Under the pieces are notes generated by a model. That model was given only the letters and a program-made list of their open reading frames with translations, was not told the origin of the DNA and ran no database searches. Source: a virus. From it: DNA of 64,000 nt. The stretch is from the IMG/VR virus record IMGVR_UViG_3300031228_000004, positions 2,320 through 66,319 of that record, one strand, 5' to 3'. The translations under genes were made by a program, and so were the position numbers. The first letter of the stretch is position 1. Every line of letters starts with the position of its first letter. This document shows, in pieces, positions 4,716 to 37,305 of this stretch.

Positions 4716-4748
4716 CCGGAAGATCACCCGCCCGCATCGGGTCACAAT
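4716..4748 (+). promoter_or_regulatory. candidate late promoter (leaderless terS)
   Basis: CCGGAAGATC-N17-CACAAT-N6-ATG(4755); variant of a motif repeated upstream of late genes. Confidence 0.6.
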
Positions 4749-4754
4749 CACGTC

Positions 4755-5294
4755 ATGACCGCCTACCCGGCGCGCTGTCCCGGCCGCAACCTCAACGGCC
4801 GCATGTGCGCCAACCCCGCCGGAAGCAACACCCGCCATGAGGGACTGGGTACCTGTAGCTGGCACAAAGGCGGACAGCGACAAGCCGAGGAGGCGTGGGC
4901 CATGGCACAAGAACTCGCCGGCGAACGGAACGTCACTCCGCATGAGGCGCTGCTTGGTCTCGTACGCACGGCCGCCGCGCGCGCGGCATGGACCGACAAC
5001 ATCATCTTTCAGCAGCTTCGCGACCACGTCGACGCCGGCGGGGACCCACTCAAGCCGCCTCCCGAACTGGCGTCATGGCTGAAGCAGTCCCGCGAGGAAC
5101 GCAAACTCGCCGCGACCACCGCCAAGCAAGCTGTCGACGCCGGCGTGATGGCTGCGCTGGAACGGCGTATTGACCTCGATGGCGACCTCGTCGCACACGT
5201 CCTCGGCGGTGTCCTCGACCGACTAGACCTGTCCCACGAACAGCGGATGGACGCACTCGGCACTGCGCAGCAACTGCTGTTGGAAGCGGGTTGA
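4755..5294 (+). CDS. terS: terminase small subunit
   Basis: N-terminal C..C...CSWHKGG zinc motif (HGGxSTG-like) plus helical C-terminus ending LDLSHEQR; upstream of terL. Confidence 0.7.
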   Translation: MTAYPARCPGRNLNGRMCANPAGSNTRHEGLGTCSWHKGGQRQAEEAWAMAQELAGERNVTPHEALLGLVRTAAARAAWTDNIIFQQLRDHVDAGGDPLKPPPELASWLKQSREERKLAATTAKQAVDAGVMAALERRIDLDGDLVAHVLGGVLDRLDLSHEQRMDALGTAQQLLLEAG

Positions 5295-5346
5295 CGGTCC
5301 CTCATGGGAAACTGGAAGCCAATGTTCCGGTCAAAGGAGACCCCCC

Positions 5347-5658
5347 GTGATAAAGGTCTGCACCCAGCTCCCCGACGGCCCCGAGGTCTGCACGACGATC
5401 GACCTCGCCAACGACGCCGCATCCCGCGCCTACACCACCACCCTCGGCAACGGGACTGACAGCACGTTCACCCTCACCCACAACCTCGACAGCCTCGACG
5501 TCCTCCCCATCGTCCGGGGCGTCGCGTCCGGCGACCTGACGGGCACCAGCCCGACCGTGACGGCGGTCGACAAGAACACGGCGCGCGTGAACTTCGCCAG
5601 CGCGCCGACGCGGGGTCAGTTCCAGGTGACGCTCCTCGCCGTCACCCCGTCCGTCTGA
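5347..5658 (+). CDS. small beta-rich, probably virion-associated protein (THNL motif)
   Basis: AAAGGAGA RBS with GTG; LGNG..STFTLTHNL..DV...DKNTARVNFASAP...FQVTL resembles fibre/decoration domains of actinophage structural proteins. Confidence 0.6.
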   Translation: MIKVCTQLPDGPEVCTTIDLANDAASRAYTTTLGNGTDSTFTLTHNLDSLDVLPIVRGVASGDLTGTSPTVTAVDKNTARVNFASAPTRGQFQVTLLAVTPSV

Positions 5659-5788
5659 CAGGCGCCCAGCGCACGCGAGGAGCCCTGCATCCCAACAGGT
5701 TCCTAGGCCACTGAGTTGGGAGGGCTCCTCGCGCGGTGTCCAGCACGCGGACTCCGTAGAACGGAGCGTAGCGCGACCGCCGAAGCGT

Positions 5789-5821
5789 CCGGAATGACCA
5801 TCGCGGATCCGCTGGCACCAT
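5789..5821 (+). promoter_or_regulatory. candidate late promoter (leaderless rmlB-like gene)
   Basis: CCGGAATGACC-N16-CACCAT-N7-ATG(5829); no RBS. Confidence 0.6.
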
Positions 5822-5828
5822 CCCGCGC

Positions 5829-6851
5829 ATGCGCATTCTTCTGAGCGGGGCGTCCGGGTTCGTCGGCTCCCACGTCCTCCACCACCTCCTCGCGCACACG
5901 GACGCAGAGATCATCTGCCCGTGGACGCTGCGCCACCACGGCAACACCCAACGCCTCGCCGCCGCCATCGACGGCTGCCCGCCCGGCACCGCCGACCGCG
6001 TCATCACCGTCATGCACGACCTCGCATGCCCCATGCCCGCGACGCTCGTCGACGAGATCGGCCCGGTCGACGCAATCCTGAACATCGCCTCCGAGTCCGG
6101 CGTCGAACACTCCATCGCCCGACCCGCCGAGTTCGTCCGCAACAACGTCGAGCTGATGACCAACCTCCTCGAATACGCGCGGCTCGTACAACCGCGGGTC
6201 TTCCTGCACATGGACACCGACGAGGTCTACGGCCCAGCCCCCGCCGGATACGCGCACCGCGAGTGGGACCCGATCATCCCGTCGAACCCGTACGCCGCAT
6301 CGAAGGCCGCCCAGTCCGCGCTCGCAACAGCGTGGTGGAGGACATACGGGCTCCCAGTGATCCTCACCCGCACCATGAACCTGATCGGCCCCGGCCAGGG
6401 TCCGGAAAAGCTGGTACCCACCGTGATCCGCAAGGTGATGGCCGGGGAAACCGTCCCGATCTACGCCTCACCAGACGGCGTCCCCGGCTCCCGGCACTGG
6501 ATCGACACCCGCGAGTTCGCCGGCGCGTGGCTGCACCTCCTCAACGGGCCGGCCCCGCAGATGTACCCGGAGTACGACCGGCCGTCGTTGTGGCACATCG
6601 TCGGCGAGGAACGCTCCAACCTCGACGTTGCGCACACCATCGCCGACATCATCGGCAAGCCCCTCAAGTACGAACTCGTCAGCTTTCACGCTTCTCGGCC
6701 TGGGCACGACCTGCGGTACGCCCTCGACGGATCGAAGCTCGCGGCCGCCGGATGGAAGCCGTCCCGCTCCATCGAGGACACCCTCACCGACATCGTCACC
6801 TGGTACAAGGACAACCCGGCCTGGTTGCAGATGCCCGAGGTGCAGGCGTGA
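5829..6851 (+). CDS. rmlB: dTDP-glucose 4,6-dehydratase-like extended SDR
   Basis: GASGFVG Rossmann motif, TDEVYG, YAASK, RPGHDLRYALD. Confidence 0.88.
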   Translation: MRILLSGASGFVGSHVLHHLLAHTDAEIICPWTLRHHGNTQRLAAAIDGCPPGTADRVITVMHDLACPMPATLVDEIGPVDAILNIASESGVEHSIARPAEFVRNNVELMTNLLEYARLVQPRVFLHMDTDEVYGPAPAGYAHREWDPIIPSNPYAASKAAQSALATAWWRTYGLPVILTRTMNLIGPGQGPEKLVPTVIRKVMAGETVPIYASPDGVPGSRHWIDTREFAGAWLHLLNGPAPQMYPEYDRPSLWHIVGEERSNLDVAHTIADIIGKPLKYELVSFHASRPGHDLRYALDGSKLAAAGWKPSRSIEDTLTDIVTWYKDNPAWLQMPEVQA

Positions 6852-11302: not shown

Positions 11303-11335
11303 CCGGACAGCACACGCCCGAACAGCAGCCACAAT
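11303..11335 (+). promoter_or_regulatory. degenerate candidate late promoter (leaderless terL)
   Basis: CCGGACAGCAC-N16-CACAAT-N7-ATG(11343). Confidence 0.45.
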
Positions 11336-11342
11336 CCCAAGC

Positions 11343-12776
11343 ATGACCACCGAGGACTGGGAGCACTTCTTTCTCACCCCGATCGACTGGATCGAGCGTG
11401 AGCGCGCTGCCGCCCCGGACGCCATCCGCCGCCGAGCGGGATCGACCACAGGCGAACAGCTATCCGCTGCCACAAGCCCACGATGGACCCCGCTACCCCA
11501 CCAGATCCCGCCGGAGGGCGACTTCTACGGCTGGCTCTTGCTGGCCGGCCGAATGGCAGGCAAGACCGACGCCTGCGCCGCATACGTCCACGACCACGTC
11601 CACGGGCCGCCCTGCCTGCCCGGCCCCGTCCCGCACTGGATCGCCATCATCGGACCAACCCTCGGCGACGCCGTCACCTCATGCTTCTCCGGTCCATCCG
11701 GCCTGAGCGTCCACAGCCCAGACGCCAAACTTGCCACCGTCAAAGGCAGCACCATCGTTCGATGGCCTAACGGATCCGAAGCGAAGATCTTCGGCACGAA
11801 CGGCCCGAACGAAGTTGACCGTCTGCGTTCCGGCGGCAACCGATGCCTCGCATGGCTCGAAGAGTTGGCGGCGTGGCGGCATCTCGATGCCGCATGGAAC
11901 CACATGCGGTTCGGCCTCCGCGTCGGCCCACGCCCGCACTGGGTCGCATCCACGACACCGAAGCCCAAGCCCCTCATCAAGCAGCTGCACTCCGGCGCGG
12001 TCGCGAACGTCGAGTTGACACACGCCAGCTACCGCGACAACCCGCACATCTCCGAGGACATCAAAGCCTCCCTGGAAGAACGGTATGCGGGCACGCAGCT
12101 TGGCCGTCAGGAACTGTACGGCGAGCTGATCGAAGAAGACGAGAACGCACTCTGGCAGCACACGATGATCGACGACGCGCGCGTACGCCCCGGCGACGTC
12201 CCGGACCTCGTACGAATCACGGTCGGCGTCGACCCGTCCGGCGGGGCCGGAGAGCAGGGCATCGTCGTCGTCGGGAAGTCTGGGCTTGTGCTGCCAGGCG
12301 ATGGCGGCCGGCCGCAGCACCACGGCTACGTCCTCGACGACCGTTCGTGCCAGTTGTCGCCCGATGGGTGGGGCCGGCGCGCGGTGCAGGCCGCGATCGA
12401 CTGGGAAGCCGACGACATCGTGGTGGAGCGAAATTTCGGAGGGGACATGGCTGTGGCAACACTGCGCGCGGCGGCCGATGCTCTCGGCGTGGACATCCCG
12501 ATCCGAACCGTCACCGCGACGCGGGGCAAGGCGGTGCGAGCGGAGCCGGTGGCGGCACTCACTGCACAGAACCGGTGGCATCACGCTGGCGAGTTCCCGA
12601 AGCTGGAGGACCAGATGGCGACCTGGTATCCGGAGGCTGGTTGGTCACCGGATCGCCTCGACGCGGCCGTTTGGGGAGCGTGGCATCTGAAGCTCGTGGG
12701 TACGGCGGCGCGCGGTACGGGTTCGTTGGGTGGGGAGTTGGCCAGAAAGCAGATCGTCGGCGGGCGCGTACGTTGA
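11343..12776 (+). CDS. terL: terminase large subunit
   Basis: Walker A region AGRMAGKT, Walker B AWLEE, GRQELYGE, nuclease VGVDPS, DDIVVERNFGG, SPDRLDA. Confidence 0.92.
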   Translation: MTTEDWEHFFLTPIDWIERERAAAPDAIRRRAGSTTGEQLSAATSPRWTPLPHQIPPEGDFYGWLLLAGRMAGKTDACAAYVHDHVHGPPCLPGPVPHWIAIIGPTLGDAVTSCFSGPSGLSVHSPDAKLATVKGSTIVRWPNGSEAKIFGTNGPNEVDRLRSGGNRCLAWLEELAAWRHLDAAWNHMRFGLRVGPRPHWVASTTPKPKPLIKQLHSGAVANVELTHASYRDNPHISEDIKASLEERYAGTQLGRQELYGELIEEDENALWQHTMIDDARVRPGDVPDLVRITVGVDPSGGAGEQGIVVVGKSGLVLPGDGGRPQHHGYVLDDRSCQLSPDGWGRRAVQAAIDWEADDIVVERNFGGDMAVATLRAAADALGVDIPIRTVTATRGKAVRAEPVAALTAQNRWHHAGEFPKLEDQMATWYPEAGWSPDRLDAAVWGAWHLKLVGTAARGTGSLGGELARKQIVGGRVR

Positions 12777-13334: not shown

Positions 13335-13367
13335 CCGGAATGATCTTCACCGGCTAGTGCCTACCGT
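13335..13367 (+). promoter_or_regulatory. candidate late promoter upstream of portal
   Basis: CCGGAATGATC-N16-TACCGT. Confidence 0.65.
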
Positions 13368-13408
13368 CACCCGCAGACCCCATCCACGGGAGCAGCGGGA
13401 GCCGACAA

Positions 13409-15208
13409 ATGGCCTGGTACCACGCCTTTACGCGTCGCGGCCCCATGCCCGCGCCCAAGCCGCACACCCCCGACCAACCCAACGCAATCACCGCAGCCGC
13501 AGCCCCCGTCACCAGCCCCAGAACCGAACTCATCCGCAACACCGACACCTGGCAACAAGAAGCCTGGCAGTTCTACAACGACCTCGGCGAACTCCGATAC
13601 GCCGTCGAGTGGATCAGCGCCATGCTCTCCCGCGTACGCGTCTACGCCGCGAAAATCGAACCCGGCGAAGACGAACCCGTACGCGCAACAGCCGGGGCAG
13701 CCGTCGACCTCATGACCACCCTCGGCGGAGGCGTCGCCGCACAAGCACAACTCATGTCAGCCATGGCCACCCAACTCGCCGTCCCCGGCGAAGGCTATTT
13801 GGTCGGCGAGACCATCAACGGCGTCGAGCAATGGGCGGTCCGCTCCACCGACGAAGTCCGCGCCGCCCGCGGCCACTACGAAGTCATCGACGAGAACTCG
13901 GCGAACGGCGGCGCGCAGTGGCGCCCGCTCGGCTCCAACTCGCTGGTGACTCGCGTGTGGCGCCCGCACAAGCGCTACCACTACATGGCCGACTCCCCAG
14001 CCCGCGCGGCCCGCTCCACGATGCGCGAGCTGGAGCTGGTGAACCGGCACATCGTCAGCCAGTACCTCAGCAGGCTCGCCTCCGCAGGCGTGTGGTTCGT
14101 GCCGTCCGAGGTCACCTTCCCCGTGCGGGAGGAGTTCGCCGACGCCCCGGATCCGTTCATGGCCGAGTGGATCGAGATCGCCGCCGAAGCCATCCGCACG
14201 CCGGGCACCGCGGCGGCAACTGTGCCTATCCCGATCAAGGTTCCGGAAGAACTGATCGGCAAGTTCCAGCACCTCGACTTCACGATGAAGCTCGACGAGA
14301 AGATCCTGGAGAAGCGTGACTCCGCGATCAAGCGTCTCGCCACCCAGCTCAACCTTCCTGCCGAAGTCCTCCTCGGTATGGGCGACGTCAACCACTGGGG
14401 CCAGTGGATGTTGGAAGAGTCCGCGGTCAAGACCAACATCGCGCCCGAAGCCGAACTGATCTGCCAGGCCCTCACCACTGGCTACCTCCAGCCCCGGCTG
14501 AAGGCGTCCGGCGTGGAGGACTTCGCGCAGTGGGTCGTCTGGTACGACCTGTCCGAGCTGACGCTGCGCCCGGACCGCTCCGACGACGCCATCCAGCTGT
14601 ACGACCGGCTGGAGATCAACGGCGCAGCACTCCGCCGCGAAACCGGGTTCAACGAGGACGACCGGCCCGAGGGCGACGAGCTCCACGACCAGGGCCTCAA
14701 AGTCATCATCAAGAGCCTGCCGACCGCAGCAGCCAGCGCCCTCTCACAACTCACCGGCCAAGCCAACGAGGTCACCCAAACCACCGACACGACGCCCCGC
14801 GCTCCCGCCGATCCGGAACCTCCACCCGAGGACCGGACACCGCCCGACACCCGCAGCGAACCACCACCAACGAACGAGGCGGCACGGCAGGCAGCGGCCG
14901 ACGCACGCTCCGAACGCATGGCCCAACAGGCGAAAGCCCTCCACGCAGTCAGGTTCGCTGCTGGCCGTCCGCCGGACCTGCTGCACCCGGCGCTGTGTTC
15001 CTCGCACGCCTACTCCTGCCCGTTCACGCACGCGGCGGCCAAGCTGGCGACGCTCCCTCGGCCGGGCACGTCGGGCGTGTACGAGGCGCGGCTGTCCGCG
15101 TTCGGGCAGCTCACGATCGGCCGGCTGTCCCCGCATCTGGACACCACGGGTTTTCTGACCACCGTCTCCCCTCGGAGTTCCAATGGGTTCGCTCACGGCC
15201 GCCGCTGA
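13409..15208 (+). CDS. portal protein
   Basis: Follows terL; WQQEAWQFYNDLGELRYAVEW, RVWRPH, RLASAG, E.LLGMGDVNHW motifs of actinophage portals. Confidence 0.85.
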   Translation: MAWYHAFTRRGPMPAPKPHTPDQPNAITAAAAPVTSPRTELIRNTDTWQQEAWQFYNDLGELRYAVEWISAMLSRVRVYAAKIEPGEDEPVRATAGAAVDLMTTLGGGVAAQAQLMSAMATQLAVPGEGYLVGETINGVEQWAVRSTDEVRAARGHYEVIDENSANGGAQWRPLGSNSLVTRVWRPHKRYHYMADSPARAARSTMRELELVNRHIVSQYLSRLASAGVWFVPSEVTFPVREEFADAPDPFMAEWIEIAAEAIRTPGTAAATVPIPIKVPEELIGKFQHLDFTMKLDEKILEKRDSAIKRLATQLNLPAEVLLGMGDVNHWGQWMLEESAVKTNIAPEAELICQALTTGYLQPRLKASGVEDFAQWVVWYDLSELTLRPDRSDDAIQLYDRLEINGAALRRETGFNEDDRPEGDELHDQGLKVIIKSLPTAAASALSQLTGQANEVTQTTDTTPRAPADPEPPPEDRTPPDTRSEPPPTNEAARQAAADARSERMAQQAKALHAVRFAAGRPPDLLHPALCSSHAYSCPFTHAAAKLATLPRPGTSGVYEARLSAFGQLTIGRLSPHLDTTGFLTTVSPRSSNGFAHGRR

Positions 15209-18068
15209 CGGCTCGCACACGTCGGGCGCGATGATTGCGCTGATGCCCACGCTCGAGGATGCGGAGCGGCTGGCGATCGAGGGCGGCGAGGCCGCGGATC
15301 AGCTGCACTTGACGCTGTACTTCCTCGGCGACGACGGCGCCGACTTCAGCGAAGAGCAGCGGGCTGCGCTCGTCGAGGCCATCAAGCAGGCGACGCACCT
15401 CGCTGGCGGTCCGATCTCTGCTCGGGTCTTCGGTGCCGCTCACTGGAACGCGGGGTCTGACTCGCCGTCGTGGGTGTGGTCGGTCGGCGATGACCGGGAT
15501 GCTGGCCCTGATGCTCCACGGCTGGAGGACGGGCGGACCGTGGCGGCCGAGGGGCTGCTGCAGAGTGGTCTGTTCGCAGACATGCCCGTGCAGCATTCGC
15601 CGTGGCAGCCGCATATCTGTGCCGCGTACTCCGACGAGTTGGATCTCGTCATCGCGTTGGAGGAGCGCCTCGGACCGGTCACCTTCGACCGCATCCGGGT
15701 GGCGTTCGCCGGGGAGCACACGGACATCCCGCTCGGCGAGAGCATGACCGCGGCGGCTGGTCCGCTGCGCCGTCAGCCCACGGAACTCGAACTCGCGAGC
15801 CGCGCCGACTTCGCGCAGATAGACAAGGCCTGGCACGAGGCCGTCGATGCCACGGTCGAGGCGTGGGCCAGCGCGCAGGAGGCGATGCGCGCCGAGGTCA
15901 CCGCCAGCATCCAAGCCGCCGCCGAGGCCGACGACTTGGACCGCCTCGACGGGCTCACCGTGGACACCGACGACGGCTCGCGTCTCCTGATCGCCCGCAT
16001 GATCGCGTACGCGCGGGAGGCAGGCGAGCAGCAGCAGGCGGAGGCCGAAGCGCAGGGCGTCGACGTCCCGGAGTGGTCCCTCGACGACGAGGCGCTGACG
16101 GCTGCGGCGATCCGTGACCGGCTGCGCCAGGTCGGCCGGACGACAGCCCGCTACCTGGGTGTTGGGCTGGTGCAGTCCGCAGTGCGGCAGGCGATGCGGG
16201 TGTGGGGTTCGGGTTCGGCGGAGCAGGTGGCCGCGCAGGTCGACGAGCACCTCGCGGGCCTGTCCGGTGCGGCAGTTGAGGAGCAGGTGGGTGCGGCGAT
16301 GAGTGCCGCGCAGAACGAGGGCCGCATGGCAGTCCTCGCGGTCGCGCCCCCGGCCGAGTACGTAGCCACGGAGATCCTCGACAGCAAGAACACCTGCAAG
16401 CCCTGCCGCGAGATCGACGGCACCCGCTACACCACCCTTCCCGACGCCCGCACCGCATACCCGTCCGGCGGCTACACGGGCTGCCTCGGCGGCTCCCGAT
16501 GCCGGGGCACGCTCGTCACGGTGTGGCCGCAGGCGGACGAGCAGGCAGCAGCCGCCGGAATGATCTTGGCGGCTTCCGCGGACACAATGCCGCCCAACAT
16601 CCATGAAGGAGGCGGCACCGTGCCGTACCGCATCGAGCAGGGGCACCCAGACTGCGGTGCCGACACCCCATGGGCCGTCATCAAGGAAGGCGACGGCGAA
16701 CTCATGGGCTGCCACGAAACCGAAGCCGCAGCCCTGGAACAGCAGGCCGCGCTGTACGCCGAAGACGACGACAAGCCCGACGACGACATGGACTACACGG
16801 GCGACACCGCCCCGTGGGAAGGCGTCCTCGCCGTCGAAGGCATCGTCACCGGCGACGGCCGCGAGTTCGCCGAAGGCGCCCTGCAGTGGGCAGACCTCCC
16901 CATCCCATTGAGGTGGAACAAGGAAGACTCCCACGGCGGGGAACCCCACACCGTCGCCGTCAACGTCGGCCGCATCGACAAGGTGTGGCGCGACGACAAC
17001 AAGATCATGGGCGCCGGAGTTCTCAACCTCGCCGAGGCGGACGGGCAGCGCGTCCACGACATGATCAAAGGCGAGTTCATCCGCGGCGTCAGCATCGACG
17101 CCGACTCCATCGCGGACGCCGACGTCGAGTACGTCTTCCCCGAAGACGTCAACGAGGGCATGGACGACGAGGGCGACCTCTTCGAGATGCTCTTCGCCCA
17201 GCCCGAGAAAGTCATCTTCCACGGCGGACGCATCCGCGCCGCCACGCTGGTGGACATCCCGGCGTTCGCCGAGGCGTACGTCGCGCTCCTCGACGAGGCC
17301 GGCGCGATCGTGGCCGGCGGGCAGCCCGTCGGTGAGGCCGCCATCCAGACCGTGGCCGGTCAGGAGCCGGAGCCGGTCCGTGCGCTGCGCGCGGTTGCTG
17401 CGTCGGGTGGGGTGTGGAAGCCGCCTGCCGCCTGGTTCTCGGATCCGAAGCTGTCGCTGCCCACGCCGATCACGGTCACGGACGACGGCCGGATCTACGG
17501 GCACGCCGCGCAGTGGGGTGTGTGCCACATCGGGTACGACGGGGTATGCGTCCAGGCGCCACACGAGGACGAGCACCCGTACTACCGCACCGGGGAGATC
17601 GTGTGCGCGGACGGTGGCCGTGTGGCGGTCGGTCAGATCACGGTCGGTACTGGCCATGCCGACACGCATCTGGGAGCGAACCCGGCGGCGGAGCACTACG
17701 ACAACACGGGCGCGGCCGTCGCTGATGTGAGTGTGGGCAACGACCAGCATGGCATCTGGGTGGCGGGCGCGGTGCGGCCGGGCGCGGACCCGCTGCGTGT
17801 GTATGAGCTCCAGGCCGCGGGCCAGGTGTCGGGTGACTGGCGGCGGATCGGCGGCCAGTTGCGGCTTGTCGGTCTCCTCGCGGTGAACGTGCCTGGTTTC
17901 CCGGTGCCGAAGATGCGGGCGCGGGTGGCGGGTGGTCAGGTTCAGGCGCTGGTGGCGGCGGGTCGTCCGACGGTGGCGTTCGGTCTGTCGCCGGAGGAGA
18001 CGGAGCGTCATGCGGTGCGGATTGTGATGCGGATGCTGTCGCGTCGTGTCCACCCTGGAAGGGGGTGA
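15183..18068 (+). CDS. fusion: 2H phosphoesterase (LigT-like) + MuF-like minor head domain + capsid maturation protease
   Basis: LHLTLYFLG and WQPHICAAY (2H); ATEILD..TCKPC...GCLGGSRCRG (MuF); EGIVTGDGR...GVSID...ATLVDIPAF (protease); located between portal and capsid. Confidence 0.8.
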   Translation: MGSLTAAADGSHTSGAMIALMPTLEDAERLAIEGGEAADQLHLTLYFLGDDGADFSEEQRAALVEAIKQATHLAGGPISARVFGAAHWNAGSDSPSWVWSVGDDRDAGPDAPRLEDGRTVAAEGLLQSGLFADMPVQHSPWQPHICAAYSDELDLVIALEERLGPVTFDRIRVAFAGEHTDIPLGESMTAAAGPLRRQPTELELASRADFAQIDKAWHEAVDATVEAWASAQEAMRAEVTASIQAAAEADDLDRLDGLTVDTDDGSRLLIARMIAYAREAGEQQQAEAEAQGVDVPEWSLDDEALTAAAIRDRLRQVGRTTARYLGVGLVQSAVRQAMRVWGSGSAEQVAAQVDEHLAGLSGAAVEEQVGAAMSAAQNEGRMAVLAVAPPAEYVATEILDSKNTCKPCREIDGTRYTTLPDARTAYPSGGYTGCLGGSRCRGTLVTVWPQADEQAAAAGMILAASADTMPPNIHEGGGTVPYRIEQGHPDCGADTPWAVIKEGDGELMGCHETEAAALEQQAALYAEDDDKPDDDMDYTGDTAPWEGVLAVEGIVTGDGREFAEGALQWADLPIPLRWNKEDSHGGEPHTVAVNVGRIDKVWRDDNKIMGAGVLNLAEADGQRVHDMIKGEFIRGVSIDADSIADADVEYVFPEDVNEGMDDEGDLFEMLFAQPEKVIFHGGRIRAATLVDIPAFAEAYVALLDEAGAIVAGGQPVGEAAIQTVAGQEPEPVRALRAVAASGGVWKPPAAWFSDPKLSLPTPITVTDDGRIYGHAAQWGVCHIGYDGVCVQAPHEDEHPYYRTGEIVCADGGRVAVGQITVGTGHADTHLGANPAAEHYDNTGAAVADVSVGNDQHGIWVAGAVRPGADPLRVYELQAAGQVSGDWRRIGGQLRLVGLLAVNVPGFPVPKMRARVAGGQVQALVAAGRPTVAFGLSPEETERHAVRIVMRMLSRRVHPGRG
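16555..16622 (+). promoter_or_regulatory. internal late promoter + RBS + in-frame GTG inside the fusion gene
   Basis: CCGGAATGATC-N17-CACAAT, then AAGGAGG, 7 nt, GTG(16620) starting VPYRIEQGHPDC. Confidence 0.6.
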
Positions 18069-18262: not shown

Positions 18263-20029
18263 GTGGCAGCCGAAGAGCTCTTTAGCGCCCCGTCCGATCT
18301 CACCCTCGCGTCCGACGCCGACCTCACCGAACTCGAAGCCCGAGGCACCGCCGAGTTCGACCGCGTCCACGCCCTCGACGACGTCGACGACCAGGCGCTC
18401 CAGTACGCGCTGCGCGTCACGGAAGATCTCGACCGCATTCGCGCCGAGCTCCGCGTCCGCGAGGTCCGCGCCGAGCAGCAGGCCGCCATGCAGCAGTCCC
18501 GCGTCGCCGACCAGCTCTCCCAGCTCCAGGCCCGCGTCCACGGGGGCACCGCAGCAGTAGCCGCCGAGCAGCCCGCTCCGCAGGTCGACGTCGAGGCGAT
18601 CGCTGCCGCTGCCGCACGCGGCGTCACGGCCGGCATGGCCACCCTCATGATGGACCGCCGCGGCGGCTCCGTCCGCCCCGAGGAAGTCGCCCGCCGCGCC
18701 ACTGCCTCCCTGGCAGAGACCGCGCAGCATGCGCCGAAGCCCAACGTCCCCGAACAGCGCCTCGCCGTCACCGCGAGCGTGGACATCCCCGGCGTCGCCC
18801 GCGGCGAAGGACTCACCAGCCTGGCCGCGCTCGCAGACGTGACGTCCCGCAAGGCCAAGAGCATGCCCGTCACCCAGGGCGCCCCCAGCGAGCAGCTCGT
18901 TGCATCCGTCCGCAACGAGTTCGAGCACGGGCACACCGTGGACAACCGCACCAAGCGCGGCGAGATGAAGGACCTCATCTCGTTCCTGACTAGCCCCGAC
19001 AAGCAGGCCGCGCTCGTCGCCGGTGGAGGTTGGTGCGCCCCCAGCCAGACCAGGTACGACTTCTTCAACATCGCCTGCGAATCCGGCATGATCGACCTGC
19101 CGACCTTCGGCGTCACCCGCGGCGGCATCGAGTTCCCCGTCTCCCCGAGCCTCGCCGACGCCCTGGCCGGAGGCACCGCCTTCGCCGGGTTCGCGGCCAC
19201 CTTCTCCAACGAGAGCACGCCGTTCCTGTGGAGCGAGGCCGACGACATCGCGGCCGCCACCGGTTCACCGACCAAGCCGTGCATCCGGGTGCCCTGCCCG
19301 GACTTCGACGAGGAACGGCTGGAGGCGTACGGATACTGCCTGACCGCGGGCAACCTCACCGACGAGGCCTACCCGGAGGCGACGCAGAACACGCTCCAGT
19401 TGCTGATGTCGGCGCACGCGCGCATCGTGAACGCCCGCCTGATCGCGCTCATGCTGGCCCGCTCCACCGCTGCCATCACCATCACCGGAGGCGCCATCAC
19501 CGACGCGGCCGCACCACGGATCTACAACGCGGTGGGGCTGGCCGCGACGGACTACCGGGCCCGCTACGGCATGTGCATCGACGACGTCCTCGAAGTGGTG
19601 CTCCCGTACTGGGTGCGCGACGTCATCCAGGCCGACCTCGCGTGGAAGGCGGGCGTCGAGCTGGGTGACATTCCGCTGTCGGAGGTCAACCGGTATTTCA
19701 CCGCCCGCAACGTCGCCGTGCAGTGGGTCAACGACTGGCAGGTCCGTGGCGCTGGCCAGTTCGGCAACGCGACACCGATGACGGCGTGGTCGACGACCGC
19801 GGACTTCCTCATCTACGCCGCAGGCACCTTCATCCACGGGCAGGGCATGAGCCTCGACCTCGGTGTCATCCGCGACTCCGTCCTGAACGAAACCAACGAC
19901 CACACCGCCGCGTGGAGCGAGGAAGCCCACCTCATCGCCCGCGTCGGCCACGAGTCCCGCCGGTACACGGTCGGCTTCAACGTCAACGGTGCCACGTCGG
20001 CGCTGCTGTCCGGCACCGTCCGCGTCTGA
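18263..20029 (+). CDS. major capsid protein with N-terminal coiled-coil scaffold domain
   Basis: 588 aa; helical E/A/Q-rich N-terminus, then LVAGGGWCAPSQTRYD, TRGGIEF motifs (recalled as cluster-B-like capsids). Confidence 0.85.
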   Translation: MAAEELFSAPSDLTLASDADLTELEARGTAEFDRVHALDDVDDQALQYALRVTEDLDRIRAELRVREVRAEQQAAMQQSRVADQLSQLQARVHGGTAAVAAEQPAPQVDVEAIAAAAARGVTAGMATLMMDRRGGSVRPEEVARRATASLAETAQHAPKPNVPEQRLAVTASVDIPGVARGEGLTSLAALADVTSRKAKSMPVTQGAPSEQLVASVRNEFEHGHTVDNRTKRGEMKDLISFLTSPDKQAALVAGGGWCAPSQTRYDFFNIACESGMIDLPTFGVTRGGIEFPVSPSLADALAGGTAFAGFAATFSNESTPFLWSEADDIAAATGSPTKPCIRVPCPDFDEERLEAYGYCLTAGNLTDEAYPEATQNTLQLLMSAHARIVNARLIALMLARSTAAITITGGAITDAAAPRIYNAVGLAATDYRARYGMCIDDVLEVVLPYWVRDVIQADLAWKAGVELGDIPLSEVNRYFTARNVAVQWVNDWQVRGAGQFGNATPMTAWSTTADFLIYAAGTFIHGQGMSLDLGVIRDSVLNETNDHTAAWSEEAHLIARVGHESRRYTVGFNVNGATSALLSGTVRV

Positions 20030-24925: not shown

Positions 24926-24958
24926 CCGGAATGATCATGGCGGGGTGGAACCTACCTT
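24926..24958 (+). promoter_or_regulatory. candidate late promoter (leaderless tail chaperone)
   Basis: CCGGAATGATC-N16-TACCTT-N6-ATG(24965). Confidence 0.65.
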
Positions 24959-24964
24959 CCGACC

Positions 24965-25417
24965 ATGACCGAACTCACCCCCGCCGAAGCCATCCCCGTC
25001 AAGGACTTCAGCCGCAAACGCGAGCGGCACATCTTCCGCATCGACGGCGACACCTTCGAAGCCGCCACCGCCGTCCCCGGCATGGTCCTCGCACGCTTCG
25101 CCGCCCTCTTCAACGACATCGAGAAGAGCGCACCCGACAAAGCCATGCGCGCCATCACCGACGCCCTCGGCATGGTCCTCCTGCCCGAGTCCAACGCACT
25201 GTTCCAAAAGCGCCTCGACGACCTGGAACGCCCGATCGAACTGGAGCAGGCCTCCGACGTCATCACCTGGCTTCTGGAGCAGTACGGGCTACGCCCTACG
25301 GAGCCGTCCTCGCCCTCGTCGCCTGGGCTTCCCAGCCCGGCATCTGGCACGAGCTCGACGGACGCTGCGCAGCCGCAGGCGTCGATCCCGGCGACCTTCC
25401 AGCCGACCGCTTCCTGA
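24965..25417 (+). CDS. tail assembly chaperone (gpG)
   Basis: Directly upstream of tape measure; ends ...EQYGLRPT + low-complexity tail. Confidence 0.75.
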   Translation: MTELTPAEAIPVKDFSRKRERHIFRIDGDTFEAATAVPGMVLARFAALFNDIEKSAPDKAMRAITDALGMVLLPESNALFQKRLDDLERPIELEQASDVITWLLEQYGLRPTEPSSPSSPGLPSPASGTSSTDAAQPQASIPATFQPTAS

Positions 25418-25644: not shown

Positions 25645-28600
25645 GCACCCCCGCTGGTGACGGCCTCGTCGGCAACGCAACGATCCGGATCGACGGTGAC
25701 ACCGACCCGGCGATGCGGGCGTTGCAGCGGTTCTCCCGCGACGCCAACGGACAACTCCGCGACCTGCGCGGCCGGTTCGTCTCCGAGTCGGCGCTCATCA
25801 ACCGGTCGCTGACCAACGCGGCCGGAGGCAGCAACCGATTCGGGCTCTCCCTGCGCAGCCTCGCCAGCGTCGCAGGCACCGTCGGCGGCGTCCTCGGCCG
25901 CGTCGGCATCGGCGTCGCCGGACTCGGCGCCGCAGCAGGAACCTCCGCACCCCTCCTCGCCGGCATCGTCACCACCCTGCAGAACATTGCCCCCGCCGGC
26001 GCGGTCGCCGTCACCGGAATGCTCGCCATTCAGCAGGCCTCGGCTGTGGTGAAGCTCGGCATGGTCGGCATGGACGACGCGATCAGTGCGGCCCTCGACC
26101 CGAGCAAAGCGGCCGAGTTCTCCGAGGCGTTGGAGAAGCTGGCGCCGAATGCCCGCACGTTCGCGCTGGCGGTACGTGACGCGCAGCCTGCCCTGCAGGC
26201 TCTGCAGCAGGGTGTGCAGAACCGGCTGTTCGCGAACTTCGGCGGCGAGCTGGAGCGCTTGGGCACTGCGGTGCTGCCGGTGCTGCGCACGAACTTGAAC
26301 CAGACCGCGACCACCCTGAACGGGATGGCGCTCGGGGTGTCGGTCGCGGCCCGTCGACTGGCTACGAACGGCACCCTCGGCCAGGCGATGGCGGGCGCGA
26401 ACAAGGGCTTGTTGAATCTTCGGAGGGTTCCCGGTCAGGTCGTCACGGCGCTCGGGCAACTCGCCGCTGCGGGCGCCCCCGCTTTCGACCGGATCACTGC
26501 GGCGGCCGGCCGTGCGGCTTCGGGGATCGGTGAGCGCCTCGGTAAGGCGTTTGAGTCGGGGGCGCTGGAACGCGCGGTGAACACGGCCATCGACGTGCTG
26601 AAGGATCTGGGCACCGTCGGCGCCAACATCTTCGCCACGCTCGGCAACATCATGGCGCCCGTACAGGATGCGGGCGGAGGACTGGTCGGTGTCCTGAAGG
26701 AGATCACCGGCGCCCTGCGGGACGCGACGGGAACGCAAGGCTTCCAGGACGCGATCGGCGCTGTGGCGCAGGTGATGGGCACGCTGGCGCGTACGGTGGG
26801 CCCGCTGCTGGGTCAGGCGCTCGCCGCGATCGGCCCCATTTTCACCGCGCTGGGGCCACCGGTAGAGCGGCTGATCACCAGCCTCGGCACGGCCCTGTCG
26901 CCGATCATCACCGCACTCGGCCCCGTCCTCGGCGCCGCGGCGACCGCCGTCGGCGTCCTCGTCGACGCCTTCTCCCCGCTGCTGCCCGTGATCGGCAACC
27001 TGGTCGCCAGTCTGCTGCCGCCTTTGGTGCCAGTCATTAATGCGATCGCGCAGGCCTGGGCTGGTGCGGCGCCGATCGTGCAGCAGTTGGGTCAGATCCT
27101 GACTGCTGTGCTCGCGCCGATCATCGCCCAGCTACCGACGATCATGGCGCCGTTGATTGCGACGTTCACACAGCTCACCAGCCAGATCCTCCCGGTCGTG
27201 TCCCAGTTGCTGGTGGCGCTGACGCCGGCGCTCACCTCGCTCGGGCAGTCCTTCGGGCAGATCCTCGTCGCGGTCGCCCCGCTGTTGGCGGTCCTCGGCC
27301 AGTTGATCGGGTCGTATCTGCGGGTGATGTTGCCGGTCCTGACGCCGATCATCGCCCTGGTCGGACAGTTGGCGTCGATCCTCGCCGGGCAGCTGGCGAG
27401 CGTCATCAACAACATCGTCGTGCCTGCCCTGCGCGTCGTGACCGCGCTCCTGCGCGGTGATTTCTCCGGCGCCTGGAACGCGCTGAAAGCCCTGTTCACC
27501 GGGGTCGGGCGGCACATTGCCACGACCGTGTCCAACATGGCCGCCGTTGTCCGCAGCATCCTCGGCGCGATCATCGGCGTTTTCCGCGCGCTCCCTGGAC
27601 GTGCTTTCTCCGCGCTGGCCTCTCTGGCGGGAGGCCTGCTCCGCATCGGCGTAATCGCACTGTCCCGTTTCCGGTCGGCCATCGTGTCGGGCGCTGCATC
27701 CGCGGTCAGTTTCGTGCGCGGCGTCCCGGGCCGGATCCGTGGTGCGCTTGCTTCCCTTGGCGGACTGATCGCGGCGCTGGCCAGGTCCGCGTTCGCTCGC
27801 TTCCGGTCCGCAATCTCCAGCGGGGCGGCCAGCGCGGTCGGTGTCGTCCGCGGTATCCCCGGCCGGATCCGGGGCGCGCTCGGCGCTATCGGCGGTCTCC
27901 TTGTCGGCGCAGGCCGCGACCTGATCCGCGGCATGATCAGCGGCATCCGCAGCATGGCAGGATCGCTGGTGTCCGCCGCCAAGGGCGTCGTCGGCAGCGC
28001 CGTCAGCAGCGCGAAGAACCTTCTGGGCATCAGCAGCCCGTCGAAGGTGTTCGCGGAGATCGGCCGCCAGACCGGGCAGGGCCTCATCGACGGGCTGAGG
28101 GCGTCGGGCCCGAAGGTCGCAGCGGCGGCCAAGAAACTCAGCGCGGCGGCGAGCGTGACCGCCGGGGCGGCGTCGCGCGGGCGTCGTTCGAGCGGCAGCA
28201 AGGCGAAGGGCGGGTACGGGGCAGCCGTGTCCGAGCTGCAGAAGCTGGTCGACTCCGGGCGGTGGCGTAAGCGCGGCAGCCAACTGTTCGAGGACGTTTC
28301 CTTCCAGGGCATGTCCCGCAACTTCCAGGCACAGCAGATGAAGGTCGCTGACGGGTTCTGGGATGCGGTCGCCGAGATCAAGAAGGCGGTGAAGTCGGGG
28401 AAGGCCGTCTTCGAGGACATGACGTTCAAGGGCATGTCCGGCAACGTGTCGCGGTTCCACGACATGATCGCGCAAATCTGGAAGGGCAACCCGTACGGCC
28501 GCAACTTCGGCGACTGGGGAAACTTCGGCGCCTACGGCCGCTACGGAAAGTACGCGAGCGGCGGCCTCATCCAAGGACGCGGCACAGGCACCTCAGACTC

Positions 28601-31638: not shown

Positions 31639-31644
31639 CCACTC

Positions 31645-31677
31645 CCGGAATGATCTTCGGCGGGTGGGTTCTACCGT
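31645..31677 (+). promoter_or_regulatory. candidate late promoter (leaderless 31684)
   Basis: CCGGAATGATC-N16-TACCGT-N6-ATG(31684). Confidence 0.65.
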
Positions 31678-31683
31678 CACCGC

Positions 31684-32061
31684 ATGGTCCACCTGATCGC
31701 GCCCACAGCACGCGCCCGCGTCTACTGCGGCGACTGGATAGCGGACTGCCCACGCCCCGACTGCGGCGGCGCCGAGCACCTCTACGACCTGTCCAACCCC
31801 CGCAACCCCCGCTCACCCCGCGTCGTGCAGAAGGGCGAGTTCTACTGCACCAACTGCCGTCTCACCGCGCCGATCGAATGGCCCTCCAACCTGGCCGACA
31901 TCACCGCCGTCCTCATGCTGCGCCCCGTCCCGCAAACCCGCATCTGGTATCCGGACGGGCACATCGAGGCCGTCAAGTGCAACATCCCGCACGGCCAGAC
32001 AGTGGACGAGCTGCGCGAAGAGAACGCCGAACACGGCGTACCGACCGGGGCGGTGGCCTGA
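31684..32061 (+). CDS. tail-module hypothetical protein (Cys-rich)
   Basis: WIADCPRPDC...FYCTNC...QTVDELREENAEHG. Confidence 0.7.
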   Translation: MVHLIAPTARARVYCGDWIADCPRPDCGGAEHLYDLSNPRNPRSPRVVQKGEFYCTNCRLTAPIEWPSNLADITAVLMLRPVPQTRIWYPDGHIEAVKCNIPHGQTVDELREENAEHGVPTGAVA

Positions 32062-33670: not shown

Positions 33671-33671
33671 C

Positions 33672-34556: not shown

Positions 34557-34573
34557 AACCAGGAGACCAACCC

Positions 34574-34771
34574 ATGAAGATCTCGCACTACTGGAAGGCC
34601 GTCGTCGCAGCGCTCGCCGCGGGCGCCGCGTCCATATCCGCCGCGCTGGAGGACAACCGCGTCACCGCAGAGGAAGGCTGGACGACGCTGATCGCCGTGC
34701 TGGTCGCGCTCGGCTTCACCTGGGCTGTACCGAACAGCAAGCCCGTCACTGGAGAGGACACCCACGCATGA
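34574..34771 (+). CDS. holin
   Basis: 65 aa, two TM helices, YWKAVVAAL...VWAVPN-like ending, directly after lysin. Confidence 0.75.
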   Translation: MKISHYWKAVVAALAAGAASISAALEDNRVTAEEGWTTLIAVLVALGFTWAVPNSKPVTGEDTHA

Positions 34772-35037
34772 GCAGCCCCTTGGACGGACGTATCCGCAAG
34801 CTCGCCCGCGAGGAGGCCGCCGCCGTCCTCGGCGTCGGACAGCCCAACCATCCGGCGCCCGACACGGCCGAGCTGCAGCAGCAGATCACCGACCTGCACG
34901 AGCACCTCCACCACGCCGCGACCACCATCGCTCGCCTCGAAGCCCGCGTGGACGTGCTGGAGAAGGCAGCCTCCGTCAGCGAGCAGGCCAAGACGGCGAG
35001 CCGCCGCGGCACGGCCCGCAAGGAGACCAGCGAGTGA
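34768..35037 (+). CDS. coiled-coil hypothetical protein
   Basis: ATGA overlap; LQQQITDLHEHL...LEARVDVLE heptads. Confidence 0.7.
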   Translation: MSSPLDGRIRKLAREEAAAVLGVGQPNHPAPDTAELQQQITDLHEHLHHAATTIARLEARVDVLEKAASVSEQAKTASRRGTARKETSE

Positions 35038-36107
35038 GGGTCGCCGCATACGCCGCTGACCGCTGGGGATGCGGCCACTTCCGCATCATCTGGCCTGGCG
35101 ATGCCTGCGCGGCGGCTGGCCACGATGTGACGGTGGTCCGGGGCGGCGAGCGGATGCGGCTGGTGATGGAAGGCGACACCGTCCGCGACGTCCTCGTCGA
35201 GGGTGCGGACGTCGTCGTCTTGCAGCGGGTCACGCACGCCTACATGGCTCAAGCTGTCGCCGTCATGCGGTCGAAGGGTGTCGCGGTGGTGGTGGATGTC
35301 GACGATGACCTGTCGTCGATTCATCCGTCGAATCCGGCGTGGGCGATGCACCATCCGGGGAATGAGGGCAAGCGGCTGGGTGGTCAGGTGCACCGGCATT
35401 CGTGGCGGAACCTGGCGAAGGCATGCCGGGATGCGACGTTGGTGACGGTGTCGACGCCTGCCCTGCTGGATGTGTATGCGCGGCATGGGCGGGGGCATGT
35501 GCTGCCGAACTATCTGCCGGACATGTACTACGGGCTGCCGCGTACGGACTCGGACACGATCGGCTGGCCGGGCTCGTACCACTCCCACCCGAACGATCCG
35601 GAGGTGGTCGGCGGTGCGGTCGCCAGGTTGGTGGATGAGGGCGCGTCGTTCGTGATGCGCGGCGATTCGTCGGGCGCGGGGAAGGCGCTCGGGCTGGCCG
35701 ATGATCCTGCGGGTGGTGCGGTGCCGATTGAGGAGTGGCCGCGGGCGGTCGCCTCGTTGGGGATTGGGATCGCGCCACTGGCTGATACTCGCTTCAACGC
35801 CGCGAAATCGTGGTTGAAGCCGTTGGAGATGAGCGCGGCTGGTGTGCCGTGGGTGGCGTCGCCGAGGGCGGAGTACGCGCGCCTACACAAGATGGGCGCG
35901 GGTGTTCTCGCGGACCGGCCGCGGGTCTGGTACCGCGAGTTGAAGCGGCTCCGCGAATCGGCTGCACTGCGGGCGGAGTTGTCGGAGGCGGGGCGCGCGG
36001 TCGCCGAGCAGCTCCGGTTGCGGGACAACGCCTGGAGATGGCAAGAGGCGTGGCAGAGGGCGTACGAGGTGCAGCAGGCTACGCCGCGCACGGCGGTCCC
36101 GGCCTAG
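35034..36107 (+). CDS. glycosyltransferase (GT-B, GT4-like)
   Basis: GCGHFRIIWP, VVLQR, VDVDDDL, VTVST..L, IGWPGS, GIAPLADTRFNAAKSWLKPLE.SAAGVP. Confidence 0.82.
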   Translation: MRVAAYAADRWGCGHFRIIWPGDACAAAGHDVTVVRGGERMRLVMEGDTVRDVLVEGADVVVLQRVTHAYMAQAVAVMRSKGVAVVVDVDDDLSSIHPSNPAWAMHHPGNEGKRLGGQVHRHSWRNLAKACRDATLVTVSTPALLDVYARHGRGHVLPNYLPDMYYGLPRTDSDTIGWPGSYHSHPNDPEVVGGAVARLVDEGASFVMRGDSSGAGKALGLADDPAGGAVPIEEWPRAVASLGIGIAPLADTRFNAAKSWLKPLEMSAAGVPWVASPRAEYARLHKMGAGVLADRPRVWYRELKRLRESAALRAELSEAGRAVAEQLRLRDNAWRWQEAWQRAYEVQQATPRTAVPA

Positions 36108-36526
36108 TCGGTGTCGAGCACGGTGATGTGGAACCCGTACGCGTAGTAGAACGGATTGCCGCACGACCAGCCGACGGAGAGTTCCAGCACGTCGCCCATG
36201 TCTGCGTAGATGTGCCACGTCGAGTAGCCGTCCGTAGTGCCCACCCCGGTGATCACGTGGTCGATCCGGTCGGCGTGGAGCAAGAAGGACTTCAGCTCCG
36301 TGTAGGCGCAGCAGTCGGATGTGTCGGCGAGTTGGACCTTCCGGCCATCGTCCAGGGTGATCACTGTGCCCGTGACTGTGCCGTAGTAGCGGTCGGGGAC
36401 CTCGACTCCCTTCTCCACGCTGGCGATCCGGCGGCCGACGACGGATTCCTTGAGGGTGTGGAGGGTGCCCGGCATCGTGCCGTCGTCGTCATCTGCGCCG
36501 AGCTGCTCCGCCGGGTACATCTGCAT
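36104..36526 (-). CDS. conserved hypothetical protein
   Basis: GGAGG RBS; DCCAYT...WSCGNPFYYAYGF. Confidence 0.7.
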   Translation of the reverse strand: MQMYPAEQLGADDDDGTMPGTLHTLKESVVGRRIASVEKGVEVPDRYYGTVTGTVITLDDGRKVQLADTSDCCAYTELKSFLLHADRIDHVITGVGTTDGYSTWHIYADMGDVLELSVGWSCGNPFYYAYGFHITVLDTD

Positions 36527-36555
36527 GGGGGCCTCCGTGGTTGGGTGGGTGTCTA

Positions 36556-36966
36556 TCAGAACGCTGCGGCCGTCGGCAAAGGAGTTGCGGCGATTGGTTC
36601 CTCGCGCACGTCACGCACCCACGAGATTCCGCAGGCGAGGCACAGTTCGTGCGGGTCCTGATACACGAGCGCCGTGCCGAGACACAGCGGGCACTTCGCG
36701 CGCGTACGGACGCGGCGGAGCTGGTCGCGCTGGTAGGTGGTTGTGCCGCCCCAATACCCTTCGGCCCGGTTGAGCATCGCCCACGCCAGGCAGCGGGTGC
36801 GTACGTCGCACGTCTGGCACCACTCCTGCGCGGCGGCGAGACCGGCGTCCGTTTCGACGTCGGGGACGAAGTCGTAGCCGACGGTGGCGCAGGGGGCGTC
36901 GGCCTGCCAGGCGACGTCATCGGCGGAGAAGAAGTCGACGATCACGGCGCTCTCCTTCAGGGGCAT
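36556..36966 (-). CDS. whiB: WhiB-family regulator with C-terminal Zn ribbon
   Basis: WQADAPC...WCQTCDVRTRCL...GYWGGTT..QR, plus CPLC...CLAC. Confidence 0.8.
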   Translation of the reverse strand: MPLKESAVIVDFFSADDVAWQADAPCATVGYDFVPDVETDAGLAAAQEWCQTCDVRTRCLAWAMLNRAEGYWGGTTTYQRDQLRRVRTRAKCPLCLGTALVYQDPHELCLACGISWVRDVREEPIAATPLPTAAAF

Positions 36967-37202
36967 GGGGTGTCGTCGGCGACAGACCAGACGATCGCCC
37001 CACGGTCGAGGCACTGCCGAATCCGACCCGCCTTGTGGAGACGCTGGCAGGAGAGGTACACCGCGTCGCGGTCGTAACCGGTGCGGTCGGCGAGTTCACG
37101 ACGGGAACCTATGCCGTCGGCAATCAGTCGGTAGATGGCTTCGTCGCGGGCGATGACGTCGGGGTCGCGGGGGCGTCCTGGCCGTCGTGCGGTCTGCTGC
37201 AT
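36957..37202 (-). CDS. winged-HTH DNA-binding protein
   Basis: RPGRPR N-arm; SRRELADRTGYDRDAVYLSCQRL..AGRI. Confidence 0.65.
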   Translation of the reverse strand: MQQTARRPGRPRDPDVIARDEAIYRLIADGIGSRRELADRTGYDRDAVYLSCQRLHKAGRIRQCLDRGAIVWSVADDTPCP

Positions 37203-37272
37203 GCTGGCCTCGCATTCACTTCGCCGGAGGGCTGAATACCATTATGCAGAGGGGTGCAAGTGACCACCGTTG

Positions 37273-37305
37273 CCGGAATATGCCAGACAGCACGCGTGTG
37301 ACACT
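37273..37305 (+). promoter_or_regulatory. degenerate candidate late promoter
   Basis: CCGGAATATGC-N16-GACACT upstream of 37355. Confidence 0.4.

Follow-up and report, generated by a model that had tools for sequence, protein, structure and literature searches.

In phage T4, a small protein that acts on region 4 of sigma-70 and remodels it (AsiA) works together with a sequence-specific DNA-binding activator (MotA), at promoters in which a phage box takes the place of the -35 element and is followed by a -10 element of the host type. Mor and C of phage Mu and Ogr of P2, the latter a zinc-finger protein, are small phage proteins that switch on late or middle promoters with a usable -10 element and no -35 element by binding at or near the -35 position; their sites are dyad-symmetric and their hosts are proteobacteria. 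Late transcription is poorly understood in actinophages, in which WhiB-like (Wbl) proteins are the most commonly encoded regulators, and we know of no phage WhiB with a known promoter target. Here we describe a short repeated box, CCGGAAYGATC (Y, C or T), in a 64,000-nucleotide stretch of viral DNA, hereafter called the window (bases 2320-66319 of the 67.7-kb IMG/VR viral record IMGVR_UViG_3300031228_000004; 68% G+C). We argue that it probably marks a phage-specific late-promoter family of a temperate Streptomyces phage, which would depend on an activator and be read by the host RNA polymerase.

Precedents from actinobacteria involve the Wbl proteins themselves. The Streptomyces WhiB protein bridges region 4 of sigma-A to the helix-turn-helix (HTH) protein WhiA at the leaderless sepX promoter (PMC10243135; PDB 8DY9), and mycobacterial WhiB7 sits on the same sigma region while a GRP-type AT-hook contacts the DNA directly 5' of the -35 element (PDB 7KIF). 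Binding to sigma-A region 4 has been shown for three phage Wbl proteins and was likened to that of AsiA; in WhiB1, this binding is mediated by an aromatic patch (PMC13013590).

Eight sites had been proposed in a sequence-only reading of the window, and all eight coordinates proved correct, as did their location on the + strand, the distance of 16-17 nucleotides (nt) to an nAnnnT hexamer and the presence of five ATG codons without a ribosome-binding site (RBS). Four of the sites carry the exact box CCGGAATGATC, two carry variants of it and two carry half boxes, in which only CCGGA(A/C) is found. The sites, with the scores obtained with the position matrix described below, are as follows.

4716-4757, + strand: promoter of the terminase gene terS; variant box CCGGAA-GATCA (4716-4726), which lacks one base, 16 nt, CACAAT (4743-4748), 6 nt, ATG 4755 (predicted leaderless); 10.3 bits.
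5789-5831, + strand: promoter of the sugar operon; one-mismatch box CCGGAATGACC, 16 nt, CACCAT (5816-5821), 7 nt, ATG 5829 (predicted leaderless) of an RmlB-like dehydratase; 27.6 bits.
11303-11345, + strand: promoter of terL; half box CCGGACAGCAC, 16 nt, CACAAT (11330-11335), 7 nt, ATG 11343 (predicted leaderless) of the large terminase.
13335-13411, + strand: portal promoter; exact box, 16 nt, TACCGT (13362-13367), predicted start at an A near 13375, followed by a GGGAG RBS in the leader and by the portal ATG 13409; 36.1 bits.
16555-16622, + strand: internal promoter; exact box within a 961-amino-acid (aa) MuF/protease open reading frame (ORF), 17 nt, CACAAT (16583-16588), RBS GAAGGAGG at 16605-16612, then the in-frame GTG 16620; 32.6 bits.
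24926-24967, + strand: tail-chaperone promoter; exact box, 16 nt, TACCTT (24953-24958), 6 nt, ATG 24965 (predicted leaderless); 32.9 bits.
31645-31686, + strand: minor-tail promoter; exact box, 16 nt, TACCGT (31672-31677), 6 nt, ATG 31684 (predicted leaderless); 36.1 bits.
37273-37305, + strand: half-box promoter; CCGGAATATGC, 16 nt, GACACT (at 37300), in the divergent region between a winged-HTH (wHTH)-WhiB operon and rightward genes; the gene that follows has its probable start at ATG 37355, 3' of a GGAGGG RBS.

The spacer between box and hexamer is thus 16 nt at seven sites and 17 nt at 16555. The five ATGs described as predicted leaderless lie 6-7 nt 3' of their hexamers, with no space for an RBS, and they are also the starts picked by a codon-usage gene caller blind to the motif. 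When the ATG is taken as +1, the hexamer lies at -12 to -7 and the box at -39 to -27, so that, as in T4, a phage box stands in the place of the -35 element in front of a -10 of the host type.

Three comparison sets were used to evaluate these sites: 51 related IMG/VR loci retrieved by a portal protein search (750 kb in total), 16 whole related viral records, and ten assembled genomes, comprising the window phage (G000) and nine relatives. Since GC-rich 11-mers recur at least four times in this genome from coding bias alone, the raw repeat count proves little. Allowing up to two mismatches, the 11-mer was found 35 times in the window genome, against 17.5 ± 4.3 times in shuffled sequences. A position matrix trained on the nine relatives only, with the window genome excluded, scored five sites at 27-36 bits and a sixth at 10.3 bits in G000, all on the + strand, with none on the - strand, whereas Markov simulations gave an expectation of 0.8 per strand at that threshold. 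The scan of the whole window detected no site of at least 10 bits outside the region from 4.7 to 31.7 kb, and the earlier statement that the early region contains no copies is therefore true for full boxes. A loose half-box composite gave eight forward matches, six of them intergenic, and two reverse matches, compared to 2.4 ± 1.4 in simulated sequences. The case against chance is carried by the matrix scan, the half-box composite and the lack of sites of at least 10 bits elsewhere in the window. Two near-matches, one at 19083 and one at 26014, fall in coding sequence, lack a -10 hexamer and were rejected as coincidences. The former (CCGGCATGATC, 19083-19093, in the capsid gene) is kept among the relatives as the protein sequence SGMIDLPTFG and is a coding look-alike of the box, not a promoter.

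In the 750 kb of related loci, the box with at most one mismatch had 101 copies on the gene strand against 10 on the opposite strand, and the same junctions recurred, i.e. 5' of the portal gene, inside the MuF/protease ORF, 5' of the tail-chaperone gene and 5' of the dehydratase gene. Among the 16 whole records, the exact CCGGAAYGATC is present in four to six copies in each of 11 closer relatives and in zero to three copies in five more distant ones; 53 of these copies are on the virion-gene strand and four on the other, and a reversed-pattern control gave none. Position 7 of the box alternates between T and C only, giving either GGAAT or GGAAC. The ten genomes together contain 42 forward matrix sites of at least 15 bits, and 39 of them fall within the virion module, a part amounting to 42% of the DNA (p = 4e-12). 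An ATG or GTG is located 6-7 nt 3' of the -10 at 21 of the 42, against approximately 6% expected (p = 8e-15), and all 42, like the eight sites of the window, have an A at position 2 and a T at position 6 of the hexamer.

The alignment of 16 to 26 distinct orthologous sequences per site revealed an identity of 97-98% in the box, 87-92% in the -10 and 69-77% in the spacer, compared to 50% in the intergenic flanks. The portal site was represented by 23 distinct orthologues (98% in the box and 50% in the flank), the internal site by 26 and the tail-chaperone site, at which the ATG is fixed, by 16. The portal proteins of these genomes are only 65-87% identical. The conserved block is two bases longer than the 11-mer and reads CCGGAAYGATC(W)T (W, A or T). 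As judged from these alignments, the footprint is that of a protein-recognised promoter element and not the outcome of drift. It also bears on the possibility that the sites are ordinary constitutive promoters of a host sigma factor, similar to each other through duplication or common descent and without a dedicated reader. The -10 hexamers fit nAnnnT, as such promoters would, and the best -35 register within the box, ATGATC at a spacing of 16 nt, matches TTGACA at three of six positions. However, the conservation of 11-13 nt at 97-98% at several non-homologous junctions, next to flanks at 50%, indicates a constraint beyond that on a weak -35, and the best-conserved part is the upstream CCGGA half, which lies outside any -35 hexamer. 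We consider constitutive promoters to be a very improbable explanation.

The weaker sites are also conserved. The variant box, CACAAT and ATGACCGCCTAC are kept 5' of the terS orthologue in G001, G002, G003, G005 and G007, and at the terL site CCGGA(A/C), CACAAT and the ATG are kept in G001, G002, G003, G005, G009 and G013; on this comparative evidence, both sites are real too. The arrangement at the sugar operon is the same in G001, G007 and G009. The degenerate copy reported at 37273 is positionally conserved in six genomes including this one, as CCGGAA, approximately 21 nt and CA(C/G)ACT occur at the same place in G001, G002, G003, G005 and G007. A Streptomyces prophage contains a degenerate copy of this type, GACGGAAC..CAGACT, with no exact CCGGAA. 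Taken over all comparison sets, the sequences indicate that the motif is real, conserved and phage-specific.

The reading of these sites as promoters with defined start points derives from the fact that the distance from hexamer to ATG equals that from a -10 element to a transcription start, and mRNAs that lack a leader are frequent in Streptomyces (PMC4681348). Leaderless messages are thus predicted for terS, the sugar operon, terL, the tail chaperone and the minor tail gene, and leadered messages with an RBS of their own for the portal and internal protease promoters. Gene 31684 is informative in this respect, as its orthologues in G000, G001, G002, G003, G009 and Streptomyces prophages have the box and an ATG without an RBS, whereas those in G005, G007, G011, G013 and G014 have no box and a GGAG-type RBS before the start. 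Leaderless and leadered starts of this gene (31640-31690 in the window) therefore appear to interconvert among relatives. The internal site is spelt by four minority codons, GGA, TTG, GCT and ACA, each accounting for 6-10% of the codons of its amino acid, and among the relatives the amino acids vary while the DNA stays inside the permitted box variants. A consensus scan found no canonical sigma-70-type promoter between 4 and 24 kb. The claim of promoters driving mostly leaderless genes is thus strongly supported by comparative sequence analysis only, namely by positional conservation, the footprint, the exchange of box and RBS, and the restriction to prophages described below. We infer the start sites and the timing of expression from the same data, and regard it as very likely that the boxes define a class of late promoters. 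A literature search with the box sequence, actinophage late promoters and the phiC31 promoter boxes returned nothing relevant, and no paper describing the box was found.

An element acting at the RNA level may also be considered, such as a processing site, a terminator or a translation signal within a long late transcript. The box does sit between the cistrons of a long co-directional block, and a hairpin can be drawn at two of five sites. Yet the five sites have no shared fold (z-scores from -1.2 to +0.9), Rfam gave no match, the spacer varies without compensation, and the distance to the ATG is that from a -10 element to a start, which together make such an element extremely improbable.

Homologues of the small wHTH regulator described below led to relatives of the phage that are integrated as prophages in Streptomyces genomes, beside a serine integrase, and the host was identified as Streptomyces because these homologues sit in Streptomyces prophages. 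Two such host genomes were scanned with a composite motif consisting of the box, 16-17 nt and YAnnnT. In a 10-Mb Streptomyces genome with a related prophage, all five composite matches were inside the prophage. In a second Streptomyces genome, four of seven were in the located prophage contig, two were together on another contig and one was isolated. The two that occur together (G018:C89:68484-69910, Streptomyces sp. A012304) are composite box promoters 1.4 kb apart and off the located prophage contig; a second related prophage, or what is left of one, may be their source. As far as these two sequences tell, there is no sign of a host regulon.

The host scan also bears on a reading of the promoters by a host alternative sigma factor of the extracytoplasmic function (ECF) type. 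The box contains GGAAT or GGAAC, which is the usual -35 word of ECF promoters, the hexamer region TACCGTC includes CGTC, and CCGTC is found in the -10 region at many sites. ECF promoters usually have 16-18 nt between GGAAY and CGT, whereas the distance here is 23 nt, a class of sites with CACAAT or CACCAT has no CGT, and no composite copy lies outside the prophage in the 10-Mb genome. An ECF-type reader was rejected on the spacing and the lack of host sites, and seems very improbable.

The phage itself does not appear to supply a sigma factor, as a Pfam search with 40 of its proteins (nearly all non-structural proteins of at least 140 aa) detected no sigma-factor or RNA-polymerase domain above threshold. 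The proposal that a phage factor replaces -35 recognition is in agreement with the position of the box at -39 to -27, its match of at most three of six bases to TTGACA and this negative result; the candidate readers are given below. Because the box does not represent a host -35 element and the host genome lacks it beyond the prophage, a phage-encoded factor is most likely needed, and we consider the dependence of these promoters on such a factor to be probable.

The phage is temperate, as indicated by two of its own predicted genes and by the occurrence of its relatives as prophages.

38834: 416-aa Cro/C1-type HTH protein, candidate immunity repressor (Pfam).
41815-42777: tyrosine integrase (Pfam).

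The integration cassette appears to have been swapped inside the clade, since the close Streptomyces-integrated relatives have a serine integrase (L096, 3184-4788) instead of the tyrosine integrase found here; their serine integrase adjoins the same wHTH-WhiB pair and late module.

For a temperate actinophage, a short repeat with these properties may also be an operator or stoperator, at which the immunity repressor would bind over or beside the late promoters and silence the virion genes in the lysogen. Stoperators, known in the cluster A mycobacteriophages and the R4-like Streptomyces phages, are asymmetric, lie in one orientation and are mostly intergenic, and the box resembles them in all three respects, being asymmetric, short, mostly intergenic and oriented (53 against 4). 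Unlike stoperators, which are numerous and found in both genome arms, it is present in only four to eight copies, which are tied to a -10 at fixed spacing and to start codons and are confined to the virion module, with none in the early arm. It also holds the -35 position, where no other -35 is found. An immunity site should co-vary with its repressor; a homologue of the 38834 repressor was found in only one of nine relatives (30% identity) while the box is invariant, and this reading was rejected because the immunity genes vary. We judge it unlikely. The palindromes at ~37242 and 37788-37831 look more like true operators. The latter, with 20-nt arms CTATGCACCCCCCGCGTAGA / TCTATGCGGGGGGTGCATAG, lies over a sigma-70-like TAGACA-17-CATAGT, and a related half, TATGCAGAGGGGTGCA at ~37242-37258, adjoins the CATAAT -10 of the wHTH-WhiB operon; from their sequence, both are likely immunity-repressor operators.

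The genes considered as candidates for a phage factor are the following, three of which had been named as candidates in the sequence-only reading (the two WhiB-like genes and the HTH gene at 56654).

36556-36966, - strand: WhiB-like protein with a C-terminal basic CxxC..CxxC zinc ribbon (PF02467, E 7e-11); candidate sigma-region-4 adaptor.
36957-37202, - strand: 81-aa winged-helix protein with N-terminal RRPGRPR (AT-hook-like); candidate box reader.
50843: second WhiB-like protein (Pfam).
56654: HTH_23 protein (Pfam).

A tblastn search with all window proteins against the nine relatives showed a virion module shared by all and a patchy early region, and only two non-structural genes are kept throughout the clade, the WhiB gene at 36556 and the 81-aa gene. 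The former is present in nine of nine relatives, in synteny and always just past the last late gene, which supports its candidacy, whereas WhiB 50843 (six of nine) and the HTH gene at 56654 (three of nine) are both non-syntenic and not conserved with the motif. The 81-aa wHTH gene, missing from the earlier list, is conserved as well as the WhiB gene that it adjoins: it was found in eight of nine relatives by tblastn and in all ten genomes by profile search, and lies directly 5' of the WhiB gene; the two are neighbours in eight of the ten, the present genome among them.

The WhiB 36556 reading frame may start at ATG 36966 or, more likely, at GTG 36945, 3' of GAAGGAG, which gives 129 aa. This is the length of most WhiB homologues; the longer ORF starts at 36966 or 37014 are less likely. 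The alignment of its homologues shows no variation at C25, C49, C52, C58, C91, C94, C108, C111, W19, W61 or GYWGG and hardly any at F32, and the C terminus combines a basic stretch, also invariant, with a CxxC-13-CxxC zinc ribbon. The protein matches WhiB1 (E 4e-11), to which it was aligned at W3, F17/F18 and W60, and also the WhiB of S. venezuelae (8dy9); its W19, F32 and W61 align with the aromatic patch of WhiB1. With four cluster cysteines, a G-x-W-G-G turn and this aromatic patch, the product of gene 36556 is, by sequence, a member of the Wbl family. Its AlphaFold model had a mean predicted local distance difference test (pLDDT) score of 61, too low for a fold search. The 81-aa protein was modelled with a pLDDT of 85 as what would be a minimal winged helix of the MarR/ArsR type (TM-score 0.6-0.7), and its homologues in Streptomyces genomes are annotated as wHTH regulators. 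Residues G8, R9 and R11 of its motif are invariant, and the remotest homologues have RRGRPRP in place of RRPGRPR. The two genes are served by a leftward promoter of their own, which has a CATAAT -10, and the half box at 37273, being beside this promoter, would fit the usual layout of autoregulation.

The wHTH-WhiB pair is a good lead as the phage factor, with a chance that we put at a little under even. How it might act is more tentative still, and the following scheme is possible rather than probable. The CATAAT promoter, active early or on derepression, would supply the wHTH protein and the WhiB-zinc-ribbon protein, and the latter would dock on region 4 of sigma-HrdB, binding there being a property of the Wbl family. 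Recognition of the box, at the -35 position, would fall to the winged helix and its GRPR arm, to the zinc ribbon, or to the two together, and host RNA polymerase, probably with sigma-HrdB, would be recruited in this way to the eight promoters. The two proteins may act in concert, in the manner of WhiA and WhiB or of MotA and AsiA. The late region would thereby be split into terS, sugar-operon, terL, portal, protease-capsid-neck, tail, and tail-tip/lysis units, with transcription starting 6-7 nt 3' of the hexamer, a position that coincides with the A of the ATG at five promoters out of eight. From the WhiB-sigma contact onward, the steps are those that we infer.

Several points limit this interpretation. 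In G013 and G014, the two most distant relatives, the boxes are fewer and more degenerate, and the wHTH homologue is unlinked to WhiB. The co-conservation of regulators and box is confounded by common descent within a single clade. In a structure prediction, the complex of WhiB and wHTH reached 0.13, with the mark at 0.32, a score that speaks neither for nor against binding. The partial similarity of ATGATC to TTGACA would allow some activator-independent activity, and a host factor with degenerate sites of its own may read the box, given that two host genomes were scanned. Searches of sequencing runs returned only DNA datasets or 'related protein' contigs, and no RNA run with the phage or a near relative.

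Of the known systems, T4 MotA/AsiA and Streptomyces WhiA/WhiB come nearest to the proposed one. The T4 box differs in sequence, and T4 has a host of another phylum and uses its box for middle rather than late genes, whereas many transcripts are predicted to be leaderless here. None of the proteins scanned with Pfam matched an AsiA or MotA family, and no dedicated search for them was made; the sigma-binding candidate is an iron-sulphur WhiB-like protein. The HTH partner in the WhiA/WhiB system reads a short asymmetric motif near the -35 element of a leaderless target in the same host genus. The candidate partner here would differ from WhiA in being an 81-aa winged helix, the motif overlaps with the place of the -35 element, where that of WhiA lies 5' of it, and the WhiB has an additional zinc ribbon. 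Similarly, the contact of WhiB7 with DNA directly 5' of the -35 element has a possible parallel in the conserved CCGGA at -39 to -35 and in the GRPR motif, but this motif is on a separate wHTH protein and the target is a GC-rich CCGG followed by AATGATC, not an AT tract. Mor, C and Ogr are unrelated to the candidate proteins.

The remainder of the window was annotated as follows. Nearly all of its genes are on the + strand, and the gene map of the earlier reading is backed in part by Pfam.

5829, + strand: RmlB-like dehydratase (PF01370, PF16363).
11343, + strand: large terminase, terL (Terminase_6N/6C).
33672: amidase endolysin (Pfam).

The ORFs 15183 (961 aa), 18263, 24965 and 31684 had no Pfam match, and their roles as MuF/protease fusion, capsid, tail chaperone and minor tail protein, respectively, were assigned from gene order and from the annotations of distant blastn and tblastn matches. 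Megablast of 7 kb against cultured phages gave no match, distant blastn matches covered only 4-7%, and the closest portal protein of a cultured phage is less than 40% identical. By these sequence comparisons, the phage has no annotated close relative and no cultured phage is near it. A strong hairpin with a T run at 4000-4030, resembling an intrinsic terminator, lies just 5' of gene 4143 and of the first box promoter and marks the left end of the late region. At 1827-1956, a divergent intergenic region contains a TTGACA hexamer together with inverted repeats that overlap (ATGGCCAACCGTATTGACA / TGCCAACCCAGTTGGCCAT), and probably forms a second switch region subject to regulation. Five or six iterons (GTCACGSACTCAAAGTC) at 54453-54629 lie within an HTH_36 gene (54077-55075) that is followed by an IstB-like ATPase gene (55085-55819), and from this arrangement they are a probable replication origin inside an initiator gene. 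The 14-mer CCCTCACCGACATC occurs three times on the + strand in coding regions (6781, 60749 and 62516), with a peptide in common or coincidence in GC-rich coding sequence as possible reasons.

If the proposed mechanism is true, the eight promoters would constitute the first defined regulon and DNA target of a phage-encoded WhiB, and an actinobacterial counterpart of the appropriation of sigma by T4, built on the WhiA/WhiB principle. Should the link between the pair and the box hold, it would show a temperate phage re-aiming the primary sigma factor of its host, and it would explain many virion genes without an RBS, which matters for the annotation of start codons. The clade offers a testable system, with a sharp box present in 5-8 copies per genome, two small conserved candidate regulators and lysogens among sequenced Streptomyces, and a compact pair of activator and promoter could serve the control of expression in Streptomyces.

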